A stretch of 60,744 bases of DNA, filler included, from Dimargaris cristalligena (Eukaryota), in the NCBI GenBank assembly GCA_003614675.1. It is 9 parts of 9 records of this genome, joined end to end, with 100 filler letters (N's around TTAATTAATTAA, not from the genome) between each part and the next. Parts side by side here need not be neighbours in the genome. Positions count along the whole stretch, not along the records: positions 47,380 to 54,018 come from ML003499.1; 8 more parts are not named here. The stretch is one strand, 5' to 3'. A model generated the notes under the pieces. The model was given only the letters and a program-made list of their open reading frames with translations, was not told where the DNA came from and ran no database searches. This document shows, piece after piece, positions 6,694-49,904 of the stretch. Both the position numbers and the translations under genes were made by a program. Position 1 is the first letter of the stretch. Every line of letters begins with the position of its first letter.

Positions 6694-6793
6694 NNNNNNN
6701 NNNNNNNNNNNNNNNNNNNNNNNNNNNNNNNNNNNNNTTAATTAATTAANNNNNNNNNNNNNNNNNNNNNNNNNNNNNNNNNNNNNNNNNNNN
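6694..6793. other. Artificial contig linker N44-TTAATTAATTAA-N44 (also at 13476-13575, 20258-20357, 27029-27128, 33795-33894, 40540-40639, 47280-47379, 54019-54118)
   Basis: Eight identical 100-bp spacers with stop codons in all six frames. The intervening segments never increase in length along the window. Confidence 0.99.
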
Positions 6794-13475: not shown

Positions 13476-13575
13476 NNNNNNNNNNNNNNNNNNNNNNNNN
13501 NNNNNNNNNNNNNNNNNNNTTAATTAATTAANNNNNNNNNNNNNNNNNNNNNNNNNNNNNNNNNNNNNNNNNNNN

Positions 13576-20257: not shown

Positions 20258-20705
20258 NNNNNNNNNNNNNNNNNNNNNNNNNNNNNNNNNNNNNNNNNNN
20301 NTTAATTAATTAANNNNNNNNNNNNNNNNNNNNNNNNNNNNNNNNNNNNNNNNNNNNTGTGTCAGGCAATCAGTATCCCGGGAAGATGGTACCCCCCCCT
20401 CGGGCATATGGTGCCCCACCTAATATACGGCCCAAAACATATTTTCAACTATTATATTAAGCATGTATGGAGTTAACGAACTATAAATAACCTATTTATT
20501 ATGAAAAAAATGTTGTCAAAATACTAAATAGGGCCTTCAGTGGTCGGGGTTGGGTGGAGGGTTAGTAATAAATGGTTCAGTATGAGAAAGAGGACACTTT
20601 CTTCCAAGAATTAGGTCCTGTTAATTTTTTAATATGCACTGCCCATGGCCGTTATATTGTATAGGGGTATAGATACCTCAATAGGAGTGTCCCAAGTAGC
20701 CTTAT

Positions 20706-27028: not shown

Positions 27029-27319
27029 NNNNNNNNNNNNNNNNNNNNNNNNNNNNNNNNNNNNNNNNNNNNTTAATTAATTAANNNNNNNNNNNNNNNN
27101 NNNNNNNNNNNNNNNNNNNNNNNNNNNNTGTCGGGTTTAACGATTGAGCCACAGGATGGGAGAACGTAGAAGTACCAGGCATGCTGATTAATTTGAAGCC
27201 AAGCAAGATGAACGAGCGTTTGGTCTCTCCATCATATTGCCCGAATTGCCACGTAAGGCATGCAGTAGCTGTCAGGATATTTAGTCGAATAGCAACCAGT
27301 AATTTGTGGGTTTACTTAC

Positions 27320-28207
27320 CTGACCGTGAACATCCCTGGAGTGGCCGCTAGGCAGGGATTCGGCTTGAAGGATGTACGACGCCAGATACATGAGGGACTT
27401 TACGAAATACTCGTAGCCACCCGTGGCCAACGGACCTTCGTCATCGGCCTTTTGGGCCTGTCCCGATAGGCACCGGTCGGTATGAGCCAGCAGGGTTAGG
27501 GAACCGTTCCGCGACTCGACATGGAATTTACACGCTTGTAGAAACTCCAGGATGGCCGACGGGTGCATACCCAAATTCCAGAGAACCGCGATATCGTCGA
27601 AGATTAACGAGGGGCTCGGTGTCGATTGGTCACCACTTCCACCAGTCCCAACCCCAACTCCACCGATATCCATAAACCCCACGATGATATGGAGGAGATC
27701 TGTGAGGTAGCGCTGACTACTGGTATACGCGGTGGCATGGTGGGAACAGTCCGTGGGGGGGTCGAAAGGCGGACAATAATAGTCGGGTGCCGTGGGGTTC
27801 TGGCTCGACCGGTCCGCAGGGTGGAACCGGCGGTGTTTAGCGAACGGGGAAGTCAGACTAACCCCGTCAATGTAAATGTACTGCCGCTGTTCGCGCTGCG
27901 GTAATAAATTCAACCCCAGTTTACGGGAGATTAGGAGGTAGTGGTTGAAAATGTGGGCCAGGCCCACCATGATCACCCGGGGCTTGGCCACCCCCATTGC
28001 TGCTGTTGTCGGCATGGTTCCCGCGGAAGGTGGTGACTCGGGCGAATGGGGGGCAGGGGGCGGCGTCTGAAGGGCATTCGTGACGATATGGTGGATCAGG
28101 AAACTGGCGTCGGAGGTCAGCGTGTCGGTAATGAGTAGAGTGCCCTGGGTGGGTAAATGATACGGAGGGCCGAAGCCCAAAGCTGTACTAAGGGTCGGGA
28201 AGCCCAT
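27320..28207 (-). CDS. ELP6: Elongator complex subunit 6, first exon (3' exon not resolved before contig end)
   Basis: Motifs LLITDTLTSDASFLIHH, FNHYLLISRKLGLNL, LIFDDIAVL and LPSGHSRDVHGQ are typical of ELP6. Donor CAG|GTAAGT at 27319. Confidence 0.85.
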
Positions 28208-33794: not shown

Positions 33795-35343
33795 NNNNNN
33801 NNNNNNNNNNNNNNNNNNNNNNNNNNNNNNNNNNNNNNTTAATTAATTAANNNNNNNNNNNNNNNNNNNNNNNNNNNNNNNNNNNNNNNNNNNNGGGTGA
33901 AAAATATCCGCTAATGGCCCACCCACTCCCTTTCCTCTTTATCCTTTATAGTAGCCAACTCGGTGAACATAGTGCTACCTGTTGATGACCATTGGTAAAA
34001 AATCAAGCGACCCAGACGAAAACCTTGGTTGAAATTGAGGACCCGCATATCCCCCTTACCCTAGAGACAATGAGGGGTGGTGGAGATAGCGGCTTTACGG
34101 GAAGCTAGTGCCCCTTCTCCCGTTCCCTCGTTTCCATCTACGCTACATTAACCCCCCGGGGCTGACTTTAATATTCTAGACTCCGCTTTGGGTCTACATT
34201 AAACCTTCGCAATATATATATCGGGGATCTCTCCTTCGACTATTTTAGGGGAGCGCTAAAACCAACTACTAAAAACATTCCCGCATGTCTCTGATTATAG
34301 CTGGATTAAATGGCGAGGTTTCACGGGTCGCTTGACGTAAAAAGGAAAGAGCTAGAGAGTTTGCACCCCGGGGCAGCCGACCCCTCCTTTCGACACTGAA
34401 GTAGACGAATAAATTGAATAGATACGGCGCCTCGACATTTTAAAAGGTCGGTGAAGGTAGGCTGTATAACAATAACTCCTGTGCTTAATGACTTTATCCG
34501 AAGGAAATTATCGAATATAATAGCTTATTGTCTTCCATCTTGCAGCCGACATCCCCCTCTCTTCCCTCTATGGCGTTTTTAGATGGTCTCTTCATTGGGC
34601 TATCCACGGTTCGGAACCCCCATCCCGGAATGCCTCGCTAGGCTCCTGTTCATTGGCTATTGGGGAGTTTCCTTTTGTTGTTGGCCCATTATCAACTTAT
34701 TTAACTCCCTTATCAAGCTGGCATCGAGGCCCAGGAGGGAAATACGTATCAGCATGGGTTTTTTGAATTAGTCGCAGCGATAAAGTGGTCTATAGAAGCG
34801 ACAGTGGGGCCCGTGCTACGCCATCGTTCCTGTGTCCACTGTCTGTAGGGAACAGAGGGAAGGGGGGGAAGCGGGAAGAGATAAGTAGGGAGGGTGCACT
34901 GGTGTAGCAAGGGTATAAATTAAAGGCCAAAAATAGAGAGAAATAGGGAAATGTCGTTGTTTTTATAAAAACCGACCCTTTCGCCCCCTACTCTTGGGCT
35001 TTCTGTCTTCATATATCTGCTATTGACTCTCTGCGTTACTTAATTTATCGGTATATATATTTATATATAAGTTTTTGGGGAACTTTGCCAGAGGCACTCT
35101 TGGCTGATAAGTATTTCCCTGCTGCGACCCTTTTCTTTTTATTGTCCAACAGCCTCAGGCCCTACCCAATCCCTCCCTTTGAGTTTAGCTGCCTCGTTTC
35201 CCGAACTAGCCTGCGCTTGGGATACGTTTATCTTTTACTACTATTCAATACCTTCACTTAACGAGTCTTCCACAGTTGAGGAGTTCTATCACCCTCATCT
35301 TTACCGCCGTGTCTACAGTATCCAATCCCTGTCTACTAACACT

Positions 35344-37017
35344 ATGTACAGTCACCGTGTAACCTTGGGGCTTTTCTTCTACGCCTATATGGCGAAGGCC
35401 AGCCCTTTCTCACGTGACGCGCAGGGTCCAACTGATACTATGCAGTACATGGGCCAAAATTTCTCGCCGAAACCCCAGGAACTGAACAGCCACGGTGATT
35501 ATCAAACGTACATGGAAGAGATTCCTGACCAGTACTATAGGCAGAAACAGCAACCACAGTGGACGTCCGCCCCTACGGACACCTTCTACAGCCCCTCGTC
35601 TAATCCATCAGCTGGCCCTAACCAGATGGCCACGGGCTATCCGACGGGGATGAACAAAAACCTTTACGACTCTACCACGGGTGGCGGTCCACCCGGGGCC
35701 GCCGAGGCGTTTCAACCGGACGACTCCGACCCGGAACAGTTCCGCCGACCTATCCAGAATCTGAACCCGACGACTCCTTCCTTTTCGGGTGCGCCAGTGG
35801 CTAACCTAGCCCCTCCAACCATCGCTGGGGCTTCCGCCGCCGCAAGTGCGGCTATTAATGCCCCAGGGTCCAGTAATGACGTTAGTGTTGAGCCTATGAT
35901 TATCGAAGCGGAGGCGCACTTGACCGAGACGATTAAGGAAAAGTACGACGAACTCCCCGTTAAAGTCAAAGAACAAGCCGTCATTTTGACCAACGCTGCT
36001 GGTTTGTCGGACACGGCTGCCAAAACCGTGGTGGTCCAAGCCAACGACAAGACAAGCAAATATCACGGAGTCTTCGACACCCTCGTTAAACTCAAGACGA
36101 GCATCTTGGGTAGGTGGCATGGGGTCTCCCAAGCCATTCAAGACGCCCTGTGTGATTACAACATGAAGCAGTTTAAGAACAATGAGCTCGGGTATATGTT
36201 GGGCGACTTTTTGGTAACCAAAGAACCGTTGGAGATCTCGGATATGACGACGTACGCGACGGACCCCGACAAAAACGAAAAACCCTATTCCATCACATAT
36301 GTGCTGGCAATTCACTCGCTTGCCGGGTCCGTTCAACAATTTATGGAATCGGCCAAAAATGCTAACGTGGACGGCCAGGTCATTCAAATGAAAGTTAACG
36401 AGATGTCCCAGCAAATTAAAATGACCATTAGCCCCGAGGCAAGCGGAAGTTCTTCAATCGGGATCCCCCAATCGCTAAAACGGCGGTCGCCCCAATTACT
36501 TCAACTTATCGCCAAAACAGTGGCGGGCGCCGCGCCCAAGGTTGCCCCAATCCTCGCGAAAAAGGCGGCCGAAATGGGCACCAAATTCGCCCCGGCCATC
36601 GTGAGCAAGTTTGCCCAAATCGGGGCCAAGATTGCCCCGAGACTCTTTGCCAAACCGGTGGCTGGGTTGGGTGCGGGCCTCGTGGCTGCCGGGGCTGCTG
36701 GGGCTGCCGTGGGAGGAGGGGCTACCGTAGCCGCGGCGAGTACGGCGGCGGTAGGGGCGGGTACTGCAGCTACAGCGGTGGCGGCCGGGGCAGGTGCTAC
36801 TGTGGCCGCCGAAGGTCTAGCTAGTACGCTGTTTACCACTTTAGCTACGAGTGCCCTCGCGGTCGGTGCTACGCAAGGCCTAAACAGCATATTGAGAACG
36901 GCCAAATCCAAGGAAGATGTCGAAACCCGGGTCACCCTCATGACGGTAACCAAACTTGTGTGTCAGAAGACCAATACAGTATTCTCGTATAACCTACCCT
37001 CCTTGAAAGGGATGTGA
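35344..37017 (+). CDS. Secreted 557-aa precursor with internal KRR site, cationic amphipathic repeats and Gly/Ala-zipper segment
   Basis: The first ATG of the long ORF gives MYSHRVTLGLFFYAYMAKASP (signal-peptide-like). The ORF is intronless. SLKRR|SPQLLQLIAK... is followed by AGLGAGLVAAGAAGAAVGGG... Confidence 0.85.
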   Translation: MYSHRVTLGLFFYAYMAKASPFSRDAQGPTDTMQYMGQNFSPKPQELNSHGDYQTYMEEIPDQYYRQKQQPQWTSAPTDTFYSPSSNPSAGPNQMATGYPTGMNKNLYDSTTGGGPPGAAEAFQPDDSDPEQFRRPIQNLNPTTPSFSGAPVANLAPPTIAGASAAASAAINAPGSSNDVSVEPMIIEAEAHLTETIKEKYDELPVKVKEQAVILTNAAGLSDTAAKTVVVQANDKTSKYHGVFDTLVKLKTSILGRWHGVSQAIQDALCDYNMKQFKNNELGYMLGDFLVTKEPLEISDMTTYATDPDKNEKPYSITYVLAIHSLAGSVQQFMESAKNANVDGQVIQMKVNEMSQQIKMTISPEASGSSSIGIPQSLKRRSPQLLQLIAKTVAGAAPKVAPILAKKAAEMGTKFAPAIVSKFAQIGAKIAPRLFAKPVAGLGAGLVAAGAAGAAVGGGATVAAASTAAVGAGTAATAVAAGAGATVAAEGLASTLFTTLATSALAVGATQGLNSILRTAKSKEDVETRVTLMTVTKLVCQKTNTVFSYNLPSLKGM

Positions 37018-42280: not shown

Positions 42281-45200
42281 TTAGGGGGGGGGAACTGGCG
42301 ATGACCCCGCCGATTTGGCCACGAGGGCAGGCGAACTTGTTACCGTTGGCGATTGACCACCAACGCCAGTATGACTAGCCCCAGCGTTCATTGCCGAAGT
42401 AGGCATATGGGGGTCCAGGCCTAAAATGGCGTTGCGAATTGACGGCAGGTTGAGCATAGGACCAATGGCAATAGGTTCCAGCTTCTCATCGTAACGCCCA
42501 ATGGAAGCCAGAGACATTTTGCCCATGCCTGAGATATTACCATCAGCAGACGTAGACGCATCCTGTAGCAAAGCCACAAAGGCCCGTAGTTTGGCGAGCG
42601 CATCCTCAAGTTGAACCGCCTTTGATTGCAATTGGGTTTCAGCCGCTAAGCGTTTATCGTCCGTCTCCCGCAGAGATTGGCGAAGTTGGGATAATTCCCG
42701 CTTGGTACTGTTCAAGTCCCGTTGCGTTTGGAGGAATTTAGCTTCCATGTTGCGCAATTTCTGCTGTAAACCAGGGACAGACAGGGGCCCCAGCGCGATG
42801 CTAGATGCGGCCGAGTCAGCAGTCCCTGTGGGACGCATGAGAGGAGACGGGGTGGCACCACGGGCATCGATTTCACCCATCGCCGAGGATCCGCTATCAA
42901 AACGAACGGACCGCCCGAGGCCGGCCTCGGGAGGTACCAGGGCGTAGGCCTCGATCTGAGTATGTGTCTGACGGAGTTCGGTCTCCAACTTCTTGATCCG
43001 AGCGGCTGACCGGTTAAGCTGATCCTGCAATTTGGTAATCACCTCCTCTTTCAAGTCCGCCTCATCGACCAGCGTGGCCAGGTTACCTAGGCTGCGCAAT
43101 TGAGCCTCAGCCATCTCCCTCTGATTGTTGGCATCATCCGTTTGCCGGGCAGCTCGATTCAAGGCAGCCGTCTGTCGCTCCAGCTGGTGCCTCAATTCCA
43201 TTTGGTCAGACTCCAGCTCTTGGATTTGAGCATAAGCTTTGGAGAGCTGGTCTTGTAATTGAGTCGCTCGCCCATTAGCCAATTTAGTGGCCTCCAGAGT
43301 GGACTGGATAATAGACTGGGTTTTCTTGTCACTCTGTCGAAGGGCCTCCAGTTCCTCGTGCATGGCCTCCATTTGAAAGAACCGGGCGTCAAGATCGGCT
43401 TGGACGGACTGTACCTCAGCCTCTGTGTGACCCCGCGCTTGGCCATTCACGGATTGATGAGCCGACAGGGCTTCGAGTTCTTCCCGGGCATCCGCGTATA
43501 GCTGGTGCAGTTGGGACTGATCAGACTGGCCGCTGTCAATGGTGCGGTGGGCATCGTTGAGGCGCTGGTGGGTCTGCTCCAGTTGGGAGCTAGCCTCATG
43601 CAACTGAGTCCGCAGAGCACTATTGTCGTTGATAAGATTGGCCATTTGTCGCTCCATTTGGCTTGTACGAACTACCTCCACCTGTTGAAGGAGTTCCGAG
43701 TTGGACTCTTCAATGGCTTGCCACTTGGCGCGCAGGTACAAGGCCTCTTGAAGGGCGTTCTGGCGGGAACGTTCGGCATCGGCAATGCGTTCGACAGCGG
43801 CGTTAGAAAGAGTAGTGACCGAAGTCCGGGTATCCTCCACTTCTTGGTGTAATCGGAGTAAGGCCTGCATCAATTTTGCCTTGATGGGGTCTTCTTGGAT
43901 TGCCTGGATTTGCTCCTCGTTAAATGTGTTTATAGGGAAAGAATGGGTGGGTGAGGAGCGGGCGGCATCCGATCCATCCGGGTTGCGACAATAGGGGCTA
44001 CTGGTCACTACGGTATCCACCGTACGCCAGGCATCGTTGACAAGGTCTTGAGTAGGGTTGGCGGCTTCAGAGTCTCGGTTGAGTAAGGTCGTTTGCTCGG
44101 AGGACTCGCCGGGGGGTGAATGCAAAACCTGTCGTAAACCAGACTTCTTTATGGCGATGGAGCTGTCGGCCCCTCGCCGGGCGCCCTCGTTATCGGCCCG
44201 GAACTCAGGACTGGTACGATGGTTGGTTCCAGATCCCAGTGAGCCACCTTCACCGCCCACGGGATTTGAGAGAGGTGAGCGAACATTAATGGACAAGCGA
44301 CGGTCGCTGCCAAGGGAGGTCAAGGAATCCACCCGTTGAACCACTAACTCAGGGTCAGAAGCCAAAGGAGAACTACTTAGGCGCTCGGAAAGTGAGCTAG
44401 CGCCTTCAATCGATGGGGACCGGACAATGGATAACCGATTCCGCAATTCAATAGTGAGTCGCTTATCCGAACGGCGATCCTGGCTCTGTTGTCGCGAACG
44501 AGAGGCACCCGTGTTGATGAATTCGTCGGAATCTTTCGGAGAAGGGAGGGAGCCTTCACTTCCCATTTGGGAACCACGCCGGTCCATGTCAGATGTCATT
44601 TGCGAAAAAGGACGGCCCACCGCGTGCGATATTCTTACCGGGGGCTGGGAAGTATTATCGTACTTGGACAGCTGGGAAGTACTCCGCTCGTGGTGGATTC
44701 GGCCAATCGAGGGGTTTGACACAAACTCGGTGGGAAGGTGAGTCTGACTATCAGTCTGACTGGAGGGACTTGGAATCTGGCTGACAGAAGTATTAATACC
44801 AAGAGCGTGTATAGAGGGAGGAGTCCCTTGGACTGAACTCGATATGGTGGTATTGAGTATAGGGGATTCCGCGCGCTCATTCAGTTCGGCGGTTAACGAA
44901 TGAAAGGTTGAATTCGCGCTGGTTGATGAAATATCAACGGAGTCGATGGGTAAAGGTGGCTGGGAGTAATCGGGGGGAGTGGGAACTTTCTTATCCACAA
45001 ACGAGCCCAGGCTAACCGAAGAAGTTCCGGGCGAGGGGGCGTTGGTTTCGATAGGAACAGATGGGATAACAGTAAATACAACGAAAGGAGTTTCGGACTC
45101 TGGGACATGGCCGCCTAGATAAAACAGCCGGTCTCGGGTAGCGAGAAATCGCCCCCCTGGTCGCCGAGTCCAGGCTCGATCGGTGGTACCAGCATGGAAC

Positions 45201-47097
45201 CAGAGGTTGGCTAGATGGAAGGAATAATTCGACGTGTCCAACATTAAGAATAGAGTAACGTTAACCAATCAGATATATAATTATAGTATGACGATTAGTC
45301 CATGCCAAAAAATCGCGAGGCGCGGAAACAAACCCGCCTTATAAAGGCGACAAGTCCCCTGAGCGGAGGAATCCCCAACGACAATAAGGATGTGCGATGG
45401 AACCCCGACAGGATCAATCGTCGAACGATCGACCCCAACCAATGCACTTTATGACAGATTCACAAAGGGTGGATTCCGGCAGAAAAGAGAGAACGGAGAG
45501 ACTGGGGACGGCGATTTACCTGATAGATTATAAGCATAAGTATCCTTAGTAATTTTCTTGTTATTCTGCTGGCCACCTAGGATGACCATGTAACCGTCAA
45601 TTATAAATGAGCTGTGGCTAGCCCGCGGTGGCGGAATTTCACCCTGGGGTTTAAGGATGGACCAGGTCTTTTCAACTAGGTCAAAAACCCATAGATCGTT
45701 GAAAAAGCGTTCGCTGTCACAGCCTCCGAAACTAGAAAAGGGCGGAAGGAACCACCGGGGAAAGGTGTGTACGGAGAGGGGAGGGGATAAGATAAAGTAA
45801 TTGCCAAATTAGTCAGTAGTCGTTCATGATTATCGAAGGGGGGTGCTTTTCAACCGCACCTACCAATCATTGGGAATATATTAGACATATACCCTGGGAA
45901 AGTGGGGTTTAGTCAGTGAATGCACGTAAGGAAAAAAAGGTATAGCCTAAGCCATACTTTGTAGAGTTGGCTACGACCTCCACTTATAAAGGCAACCTGT
46001 GGCACTTACATGTACAACTTATTATCGTAAATACAAGACGAGTGGAACGCACGTTTGGGCGGGTATAGATTGTTAACCGGACTGAGGAATTGCCAACGGG
46101 CCCCATCGTGTTTAACTACATGGCAGAGTAGAAACAAAAGGCATAAAAGGGTCGAGTTAGACCATATCGAGAGGGGGGACAGTTGTACAGCAATCGCCAT
46201 ATAAAGGTCCAGGATAAATAATAATAAGATTCCGATGGACAGGGTGGCCTAATAAACCTATTTGAGGCAAAAGCCAAATAGATTCTAGGCAGGGGTAAAA
46301 CGATGAGACTACTTACCGGTCCGTAGGTCAAACAGAGCAATGTCATTGGCGTAACCGTCACGAGTCACACCGAATGATACACACATGGCATGGCCGTAGA
46401 GGGAGCAGGCGTGACCTTGCCGACCCCGAAAGGCCTGTCCGTCTAGCTTAATAGTAAACCAGCGCGAGTGCTGCAGAGTGTACATGTAGACCTGGGAGTC
46501 GTCGAACGAACCGTCGCTAAGACGACCACCAAAGACCAGCATGGCTCGACCAATGAAAATAGCGCAGTGATGAATACGGGGACTGGGGGGAGTACCGGCG
46601 GTTTCAATGGTTTTAAAATTTAAATTACGGGGATTAAATTGGACCAGGTCGGACATATACTGGGAGCCGGCACGACCGCCGAATACATAGGCGTCCTGGC
46701 CGTCAAAGGCTAGGGAAAAATCGTTACGAGGGAAGGCCGGGTGTTCCGGGTGCTTGAATCCCTTCCACGAAACTTTGGCGCACGGTATATTTGACCGGTC
46801 ACCAGGTGTGGCGGACCCACCCTGGACTACGGGACCGGCGGTTGGGCCGGTAGCGGGCGAAGCCATCGACGAATAACTGGATGACGCAGTAGAAGAGCCC
46901 GGCTGGGTGACAGCGGATACCCGCTTGTTTTTCGGTGGCGGAGCAGGTGGTGGCTGCGATGGGCTAAACGAGCTGTGTAAACCACCGCCGGCACGGGCGG
47001 GTGGGGTAGGAGGTAGACCAGAGCTGGTGGAGCGCTTCTGTGAGGTAGACTGACTGTGGCTACTATGGGAGCCCTTCAGCTTGTTGAAAAAAGACAT
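42281..47097 (-). CDS. Kelch-repeat plus C-terminal coiled-coil cell-polarity protein (Kel1/Tea1-like); exons 47097-46317, 46115-46010, 45731-45520, 45210-42281
   Basis: Repeated kelch motifs (YVFGG, PSPRIHH, LVFGG, GRQGH, PPKRAFH, IFGG..FFNDLW, PPPRASH) and a long heptad-rich C-terminus. Three GT-AG introns give a 4029-nt in-frame join. Confidence 0.88.
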
Positions 47098-47379
47098 GGG
47101 CGACGGATAAATAGAAATAAAGGGAGGTATGGGCTAACAAGGGACAGATAAGAGATGCACCCCAACACTTAAGTGATACCCCACTGAACAGGATGGACAC
47201 AAGTGGGTGAATATATAAAATACAGGAAAAGATGGGGGAGGGCCGGTGAACAAAGACAATGAACCACGACGGGGGGGGGNNNNNNNNNNNNNNNNNNNNN
47301 NNNNNNNNNNNNNNNNNNNNNNNTTAATTAATTAANNNNNNNNNNNNNNNNNNNNNNNNNNNNNNNNNNNNNNNNNNNN

Positions 47380-48362: not shown

Positions 48363-49904
48363 TTAATGACTTTTGGGAGCAGGAAGAGTGACTCTGCGGT
48401 TGGGAACAGCTTCGTGGTAGATACGAAGTGCGAGTTGGCCTTCGGCTGTAAGGTACACGGGGAAATAGTTTGGCATGAAGTGCTCGCAAAGTACCCTCAA
48501 TGAACGCGGGCTAGCTTCGGGAGCCTCCCATTTCTGGGCGGCCCGGAACCAGCCGTATACTTGGGCACAGCGTTTTAAATCGAATGCGATGTCATTCTGG
48601 GGAAGTATTTCTTCCAGCCAAGCCACCAAAGGCTCAAACCCCAACTGGACGGCCATAGCCAGGCCGGTTCGGAAGAGGCTCGGATAGAGGCTAGTCGACT
48701 GAACATCGGTCAACGAAGCGGCATGCCAGGCCCGGGCCCCATCGACATTGCCTTGGGCAATCAACATAATCCAGGTCGACCCAATAACCATGTGTTTGAG
48801 GTGGATGAAAAACGAATTCTGGAGGAATTGTACACGACTTTTGGTGCGGCCCGAGGCGTCGTTATTGGCGCCACCTACACTAGGCTGATCAACCTGGGCC
48901 AACGTTGCTGCGAAATTCCAATATTTAAGGGGAAGCTGAAGCCCTATCCAACGACTCCATTTTTCATCGAAATGGTTTAAAAGTGGGTGTTGAATTAGCT
49001 TAGTCAAGCGGGCCAGATTATCATCCTGGTCCCAGTTGGCAACCATTTGCAGGATGGGGAAAAATGCATCCATAACCCCGGATAACTCCTCGACGTGGAC
49101 CACTTTGGTTTCGTAGTAAATTCGTTCCAGCTCCGTATGAAAATCCCTAAAACCGTTACGATAGGTTTCGGTGGTGGCCAAGAACGAAGGACGGAGCGGC
49201 TCTCCGCATACGGACTGATCAGGTTGAAGCCAGCGATAATTACCATCCTTATCGCAGAAATTGGGACGGTTTCCACCGAAATCTCTTTCAGCGGTATTTC
49301 GGAACATTAATCCGAGACGGTTGACCGAAATTGTAGACAGTTTATCGTAAATAAGTCGCTGCACCATGGTTGGGCGCACGAAGCCTTCAAGTAAGGTCGT
49401 CAAAACGTCCGCACTTAAAGTTACATTAGCATCAGTGCTTGCCCATCCTGGATCGTTAAGGGCCTGGTAGTAAGGATAAGTACGGATTTAGATTATTTGA
49501 GGTTGACCGTATTAATAATGCGTTAAATCGACAATGGGTGATATGAAAAAGTCGAGTCATGCATGGCAGGGTGTCTTGGCCATTTTTTATTGGCGAACCA
49601 GTGAGCATATCATACAGCCAGTCAGGTCCACTGTGTTTGCTTATATTTACAGGAAATAATAGATAATTGAGCGGGGTTATGCACTTACCCTGACAACCGA
49701 ATTTTTCTGAACTCGGTATATACCATTATGCCATTTTCTGGATGTCCACATACTCCAAAATTGGCTTTCAAAAGTCATTCGGGACCATATTTGTTCCAAT
49801 AGCTCATCAGGCAGGCCTTCAGAACCCGACATGGGGGACGCGAGGCATGTAAAGGGTAAGGCCACTGCCAAGACTCCAAACCCCATTCGAGATACTTTAA
49901 CCAT
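48363..49904 (-). CDS. Secreted F-box-like protein (~438 aa); exons 49904-49689 and 49463-48363
   Basis: Signal peptide MVKVSRMGFGVLAVALPFTCLASP, then LPDELLEQIWSRMTFESQFWSMWTSRKWH. Donor AGG|GTAAGT at 49688 and acceptor ACCAG|GCC at 49464 join in phase 0 (SVVR|ALNDPGW...) into the 346-aa ORF. Confidence 0.8.

Follow-up and report, generated by a model that had tools for sequence, protein, structure and literature searches.

Gene structure at the locus

Within a 60,744-nucleotide stretch of DNA from Dimargaris cristalligena (assembly GCA_003614675.1; nine parts joined end to end, here called the window), we identified a candidate gene on the minus strand between positions 48363 and 49904. Its predicted product has a signal-peptide-like N-terminus, an F-box-like motif and a C-terminal domain shared with two other proteins of the same species. 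An earlier note had proposed that this is a secreted effector that recruits an SCF (Skp1-cullin-F-box) ubiquitin ligase of the host. The gene appears to belong to a real, lineage-specific and probably secretory family. The full SCF-hijack mechanism (secretion, uptake, Skp1 docking and target recruitment) is a more tentative reading, to which we give a probability of roughly 0.3.

Exon 1 (P0001; 49689-49904, minus strand) is 216 nt, or 72 codons, in length. It opens with the ATG at 49904 and carries both the signal-peptide-like segment and the F-box-like motif. An in-frame stop lies 111 nt 5' of this ATG. The hexamer GTAAGT at 49688 directly follows the exon and opens a predicted phase 0 intron of 225 nt (49464-49688, minus strand; GTAAGT...ACTACCAG), with the acceptor CAG at 49466-49464. 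Exon 2 (P0002; 48363-49463, minus strand) begins with the codon at 49463 and has 366 codons plus a stop. It encodes an orphan domain without a Pfam family that is mostly helical by prediction. The join of 49689 to 49463 is in phase, and the spliced protein of 438 aa has one stop, at its end. GC content is 0.40 in the proposed intron versus 0.46 and 0.51 in the exons. The exon and intron coordinates of the earlier note, and the signal-like start that it described with LP after eight residues (LP starts at 49814), are present in the sequence.

The open reading frame (ORF) downstream (48363-49367, minus strand) encodes 334 aa from its first ATG. Its frame is open back to 49487, and no ATG occurs in the exon 2 frame from 49487 to 49367. 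A tblastn alignment with the related protein P0004 (see below) extends as far as 49394, upstream of the ORF ATG at 49367. Further, the invariant columns W7, D11, D19, L24 and P31 of P0002 in a three-way alignment all precede P0002 Met33. Because coding residues conserved among paralogues lie 5' of the ORF ATG, in a frame that lacks an ATG, an upstream exon is needed. The gene is therefore longer than the ORF, and the earlier contention that the ORF track splits it in two and hides its architecture is borne out.

Enumeration of possible splices (12 GT donors and 4 AG acceptors) gave 48 pairs, 16 of them in frame and without stops. Among these 16 joins, the proposed pair alone uses a GTAAGT donor, a hexamer shared with the annotated intron of the ELP6 gene elsewhere in the window. 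The GTATGT donor at 49753 is an alternative; its use would shorten the F-box-like motif and delete R56 and Y63, which do not vary across the paralogues in the N-terminal alignment. We call the intron from its phase, its consensus donor and colinearity with the paralogues. Exon 1 has a codon-usage score of 0.012, which exceeds those of its other two frames and of 93% of random windows. Scores for the intron and the upstream region are negative (i.e., below exon 1). Overall, we consider it probable that the two-exon gene model is right.

Paralogues

A phmmer search with exon 2 against 1.84 billion representative proteins returned three proteins at E<=0.001. These are the ORF of the locus itself, P0004 (547 aa, E 8.1e-11, 23% identity to exon 2) and P0005 (490 aa, E 2.1e-4, 26% identity to exon 2). 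Homology of exon 2 to P0004 and P0005 covers P0002 residues 22-359. Both are named as Dimargaris cristalligena proteins in NCBI and UniRef, and P0006 is a 554-aa variant of P0004. Because P0004 and P0005 come from the same species as the window, they are paralogues, not orthologues. The family is confined to Dimargaris cristalligena among the representatives searched. No further paralogue was found within the window by tblastn, and a word-index protein search with exon 2 matched only the window's own 334-aa ORF. A second search of this kind, with an alignment as query and 8000 candidates scored, returned P0005 alone and does not bear on family size.

All three paralogues have a common layout, in which a hydrophobic, signal-like start is followed within 8-10 residues by an L[PS]xE...I...R motif and then by an orphan domain of ~330 aa. 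The score of exon 1 aligned to the first 110 residues of P0005 was reached by 15 of 2000 shuffles. The likeness of exon 1 to the P0006 N-terminus is not significant (265 of 2000 shuffles reach the score), and the N-termini of P0005 and P0006 are barely alignable. P0004 contains LPYE twice within residues ~26-47, first in LPYEVALKVICD and, 12 residues on, in LPYEYLVQIS, as if a short segment of a putative F-box had been duplicated in tandem. MAFFT pairs the LP of the window protein with the second copy; due to the duplication, the alignment of this region is ambiguous. The family is probably small, fast-evolving and species-restricted. Species-restricted families are common among effectors.

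An N-terminus resembling a signal peptide

Signal-peptide calls were made by heuristics for charge, hydropathy and the (-3,-1) rule, with no dedicated predictor. Residues 1-22 of the window protein (49839-49904, minus strand) include K3 and R6, then an uncharged hydrophobic core. Predicted cleavage after residue 22, between CLA and SP, satisfies the (-3,-1) rule, and the LP of the F-box-like motif follows eight residues on, at residues 31-32. Ahead of the core are two basic residues and no acidic ones, and the 20 residues after it include five acidic residues and one basic residue. By the same heuristics, the N-terminus has the features of a classical endoplasmic reticulum (ER) signal peptide (n-region, h-region of ~7-15 residues, small residues at -3 and -1). 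The Kyte-Doolittle mean exceeds 1.6 solely in N-terminal 19-mers of the protein, and the C-terminus is polar. We identified no second membrane segment, ER-retention tail or tail like that for a glycosylphosphatidylinositol anchor.

In each of the three paralogues, one or two basic residues lead into a hydrophobic stretch that is free of charges and 14-22 residues long, and (-3,-1) sites are present. In P0006 these are R4, a 17-residue stretch and a site between AQS and NN. In P0005 they are R2, a 17-residue stretch ending in Ala/Pro and several A-x-A sites. P0005 also has a single internal 19-mer at 1.71 (position 311), located within the conserved helical domain. The N-flank is more positive than the C-flank in all three cases, and as membrane anchors the hydrophobic cores would be short. 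This charge balance, together with the short cores, favours a translocated C-terminal part over an anchor that leaves the motif in the cytosol. Thus, we infer that the N-terminus is a cleaved ER signal peptide and that the protein is exported; the chances that it belongs to the secretory pathway seem to us about even.

Other types of N-terminal segment were considered and rejected. The charge balance is wrong in all three paralogues for a P450-type anchor with a cytosolic F-box. The window copy lacks the basic C-flank of a mitochondrial outer-membrane anchor, and has just two basic residues ahead of a long hydrophobic core, which excludes a mitochondrial presequence.

The F-box-like motif

The F-box-like motif occupies residues 30-60 (49725-49817, minus strand; LPDELLEQIW...SRKW), and its match to Pfam is sub-threshold. 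In a Pfam scan at E<=10, F-box (PF00646) and F-box-like (PF12937) were the sole families matched. The match to PF00646 has E 0.0056 (17.0 bits) with exon 1 and E 0.0022 (18.3 bits) with residues 25-72; residues 31-60 align to positions 4-33 of the 43 in the profile. Among language-model neighbours of residues 25-72, the eighth-ranked is an F-box cluster (score 0.91), and we treat it as no more than a lead.

The LPxE layout is kept among the relatives, with LPDELLEQIW...SRKW in the window protein, LSTEINQLIF...ISRPL in P0005 and LPYEVALKVI in P0004. Invariant columns of the N-terminal alignment are L, E, I, R, R and Y, and the Pro is replaced by Ser in P0005.

The C-terminal domain

Across the three sequences, 45 columns of the common C-terminal domain are invariant, two of them Cys. 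Cys 371 (P0002 C299; 48567-48569, minus strand) lies in the motif R/H-C-x-x-x-Y-G-W, and Cys 398 (P0002 C326; 48486-48488, minus strand) is the second. Outside its hydrophobic start, P0005 has no further cysteines. The pair may form a disulphide, which would suit a secretory protein.

The earlier note had described ankyrin-like units in exon 2. The letters that it quoted are present, but we identified neither an Ank match nor an internal repeat. A Pfam scan of P0002, P0004 and P0005 at E<=10 found no family in the C-terminal domain, Ank included, and in an hhalign self-comparison of the profile no internal repeat was detected (best off-diagonal P 0.33, probability 0.2%). The sole pointer to ankyrin is that 15 of the 30 nearest language-model clusters carry Ank families, at scores of 0.87-0.90 and with at most 142-145 shared features, which is below the reliability level of the method. 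The family profile had 0 matches to PDB sequences, and exon 2 gave noise or nothing against the same set. An existing model of the 334-aa form has a pLDDT (predicted local distance difference test) of 0.40. Its structural neighbours, at template modelling scores of 0.30-0.48, are all under the bar and were disregarded. A helical C-terminal domain is plausible; likeness to ankyrin is unsupported.

Comparison with known F-box effectors and a proposed mechanism

The Dimargaritales parasitise Mucoromycota and some Ascomycota via an appressorium and a biotrophic haustorium, according to an excerpt of PMC9866270. The same excerpt agrees with the earlier description of the source organism as a parasitic, early-diverging fungus, as D. 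cristalligena belongs to these haustorial mycoparasites. The producer is thus of the kind expected for a host-delivered F-box mimic, i.e., a parasite in intimate contact with the living cells of its host.

Canonical F-box proteins (PF00646/PF12937) share with the window protein the LPxE start, the hydrophobic spacing, the [ST]-R-K-W ending and an N-terminal motif followed by another domain. Unlike theirs, the motif of the window protein is sub-threshold and is preceded by a signal-peptide-like segment, and a three-helix fold and Skp1 binding are putative for it.

Delivery of an F-box into another cell, where it recruits host Skp1/SCF, is established for bacteria, with Agrobacterium VirF as one case, and delivery has also been established for a eukaryotic parasite, the Hessian fly (below). 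Legionella AnkB is described as an F-box effector delivered into the host cell. RipG7/GALA7 of Ralstonia binds Arabidopsis SKP1-like proteins, as stated in part of PMC4617103. The logic of these bacterial proteins (AnkB, RipG/GALA and VirF) is the one proposed here, namely a delivered F-box that recruits host Skp1/SCF. However, they use type III or IV secretion signals, whereas the window protein has a start like that of an ER signal peptide, and their Ank or LRR (leucine-rich repeat) domains are recognisable by Pfam, whereas none is detectable in the window protein.

Among eukaryotes, the SSGP-71 proteins of the Hessian fly (Mayetiola destructor) carry a signal peptide. They combine an F-box with LRRs and interact with host Skp, according to the portion of PMC4617103 that deals with them. 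As in the window protein, a eukaryotic parasite encodes an N-terminal F-box (or F-box-like motif) followed by another domain, which binds targets in SSGP-71. The C-terminus of SSGP-71 consists of leucine-rich repeats, in contrast to the orphan helical domain without a Pfam family found here. The SSGP-71 family is massively expanded and is directed at a plant host, whereas we identified three paralogues in a parasite of fungi. Skp binding has been shown for SSGP-71, whereas for the window protein it is putative.

The candidate NLS_30765 of Rhizophagus clarus (542 aa) has an F-box-like domain, no other significant matches and the status of an effector predicted in silico, as reported in a section of PMC4746824. 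It resembles the window protein as an F-box-like candidate effector of an early-diverging fungus. In the same section its F-box-like match is significant (2.8e-07 as printed), versus the sub-threshold match of the window protein. R. clarus is a plant symbiont, so that the host is a plant rather than a fungus. Since secreted F-box effectors of eukaryotes have already been published, the novelty implied by the earlier note is reduced. We found no paper that ties D. cristalligena or mycoparasites to secreted F-box proteins (supplements were outside the search). The term F-box is absent from the main texts of PMC9391592 and PMC6784888, although their supplementary secretome tables might list the family.

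In the proposed mechanism, the signal peptide would be cleaved and the protein exported at the haustorial interface, then taken up by the Mucoralean host. In the host cytoplasm, the F-box-like N-terminal helices would dock on Skp1, a protein that fungi conserve strongly, and the orphan domain would bring proteins of the host to the SCF ligase to be ubiquitinated. We infer the steps of cleavage, secretion, uptake, Skp1 binding and target recruitment from the features described above. Because the motif is sub-threshold, the signal-peptide calls are heuristic and the splice is predicted, we go only as far as calling the mechanism plausible. If it holds, the protein would join a known kind of effector, with a new target-binding domain and a fungal host. 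It is rather doubtful that, as a complete statement, D. cristalligena uses the ordinary ER signal-peptide route and its haustorium to export species-specific F-box mimics, with a new substrate-binding domain, that plug into the SCF of its Mucoralean host.

Alternative explanations

A number of results weigh against the SCF-hijack mechanism, and they can be read in three other ways. The protein may be secreted or secretory and its likeness to an F-box fortuitous, in which case the motif would be an amphipathic helix that never encounters Skp1, in a protein that acts outside the cell, at the parasite wall or in the haustorial matrix. We find this somewhat unlikely. It would accord with the signal-peptide features of all three paralogues and with a possible disulphide between the two invariant cysteines. 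The earlier note had reported an F-box pattern, and the LP start, the spacing and the SRKW ending are indeed present, but the profile hidden Markov models were matched below their gathering scores. PF00646 does not reach its score of 20.5, and PF12937 (E 0.062 with exon 1, E 0.028 with residues 25-72) gives 13.5-14.6 bits versus 24.3. P0004 and P0005 have no Pfam F-box match at E<=10, either as whole proteins or as N-terminal pieces. Searches of PDB sequences found no F-box protein, whether by phmmer with exon 1 (7 matches, E>=0.26) or with a three-row N-terminal profile (6 matches, E>=0.93). Modelled by AlphaFold2 from the single sequence, residues 25-72 form one unbroken helix (9-46, pLDDT 83.1) rather than a bundle of three, an outcome that is common for short helical peptides modelled in this way. 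The AlphaFold2 model of P0005 (five-row alignment), mostly helical, has a pLDDT of 36.4 and is unusable, as the family is too small for a useful alignment. Also against the SCF-hijack mechanism, the window protein is large and cysteine-poor for a classical fungal effector, with one N-glycosylation sequon. However, E values of 0.002-0.006, with the two F-box models as the sole matches, would be improbable if the 48-aa peptide were unrelated to F-boxes. Paralogues at only 23-26% identity also retain the L[PS]xE...I...R spacing, and the UniRef name of P0004 is 'F-box domain-containing protein'. The F-box match is above chance yet fails the curated membership criterion, and we regard it as suggestive.

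Alternatively, this could be a normal F-box protein that works in the SCF ligases of the parasite itself, with the hydrophobic start serving as a tether or bypassed by initiation further downstream. F-box proteins are normally cytosolic or nuclear, and the orphan C-terminal domain could serve as a substrate receptor. An in-frame ATG at codon 25 (49830-49832, minus strand) lies two residues past the predicted cleavage site and six before LP, and could yield a cytosolic form that lacks the hydrophobic start. A purine at -3 is missing from all three ATGs considered, and the signal-peptide calls are heuristic. This explanation, which we consider unlikely, must contend with the presence of the hydrophobic start in all three paralogues. 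The codon 25 ATG is not conserved among them, and P0005 and P0006 have no Met between the hydrophobic start and the motif. Flanking charges point to translocation of the C-terminal part in each of the three, the cores would make short anchors, and the window copy has an acidic C-flank. The gene model itself could also be wrong, with exon 1 foreign to the gene or spliced otherwise, so that the architecture would be an artefact of joining two ORFs. The splice is a prediction, 15 other in-frame GT-AG joins exist (including that from GTATGT at 49753), and the public protein of the locus, P0003 (334 aa), begins at P0002 Met33, which leaves out exon 1. At 225 nt, the proposed intron far exceeds the annotated ELP6 intron (51 nt). 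The coding potential of exon 1 is intermediate, with a score under those of all 30 exon 2 windows (minimum 0.028). Against a wrong model, coding conservation 5' of the ORF ATG demands an upstream exon, the sole GTAAGT donor gives an in-phase join and the N-terminus repeats the layout of both full-length paralogues, with the likeness to P0005 noted above. We thus view a wrong model as more improbable still. The model with exon 1 would probably correct the public 334-aa protein, which misses the exon with the signal-like start and F-box-like motif.

Other features of the window

Two propeller genes flank the candidate gene along the window. A WD40 propeller gene (52228-53955, plus strand) encodes an N-terminal region of 277 aa without a Pfam family, and a Kelch propeller gene (46312-47133, minus strand) is the other flanking gene. 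WD40 and Kelch propellers often partner F-boxes. No F-box was identified in the parts of these two genes that were scanned.

A ribosomal RNA gene (rDNA) unit is located at 56082-60744 (plus strand), ~6 kb from the candidate gene along the window. It includes the small subunit (SSU; 56082-57882) and 5.8S (58066-58219) genes, and the large subunit (LSU) gene from 58464 past the window end. The ELP6 gene (27191-28207, minus strand) has one 51-nt intron (GTAAGT...CTGACAG) near its 3' end. Its ORF is 100% identical to a D. cristalligena protein, and the next best matches, from Dispira and other Dimargaris, are at 39-43%, which places the window in that species or a near-identical relative. Open frames of 995 aa (42284-45268, minus strand) and 648 aa (35071-37014, plus strand) have no Pfam family at E<=0.001. 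GC content around the 995-aa frame (0.51-0.55) is the highest in the window. Paired 44-base runs of N recur every ~6.76 kb (6694-6793, 13476-13575, 20258-20357 and onwards to 54019-54118); these resemble masking more than biology.

Implications

Host manipulation by haustorial mycoparasites of early-diverging fungi is hardly known, and a secreted F-box mimic would provide a concrete mechanism. If the SCF-hijack mechanism is true, this would be the first hijack of a ubiquitin ligase by one fungus against another, and a sign that haustorial mycoparasites place proteins of their own in the cytoplasm of the host. A strategy already seen in bacteria, viruses and a gall midge would extend to fungus-fungus parasitism. 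Should the likeness to an F-box turn out to be empty, the genes would still constitute a small, lineage-specific and probably secretory family of unfamiliar fold.

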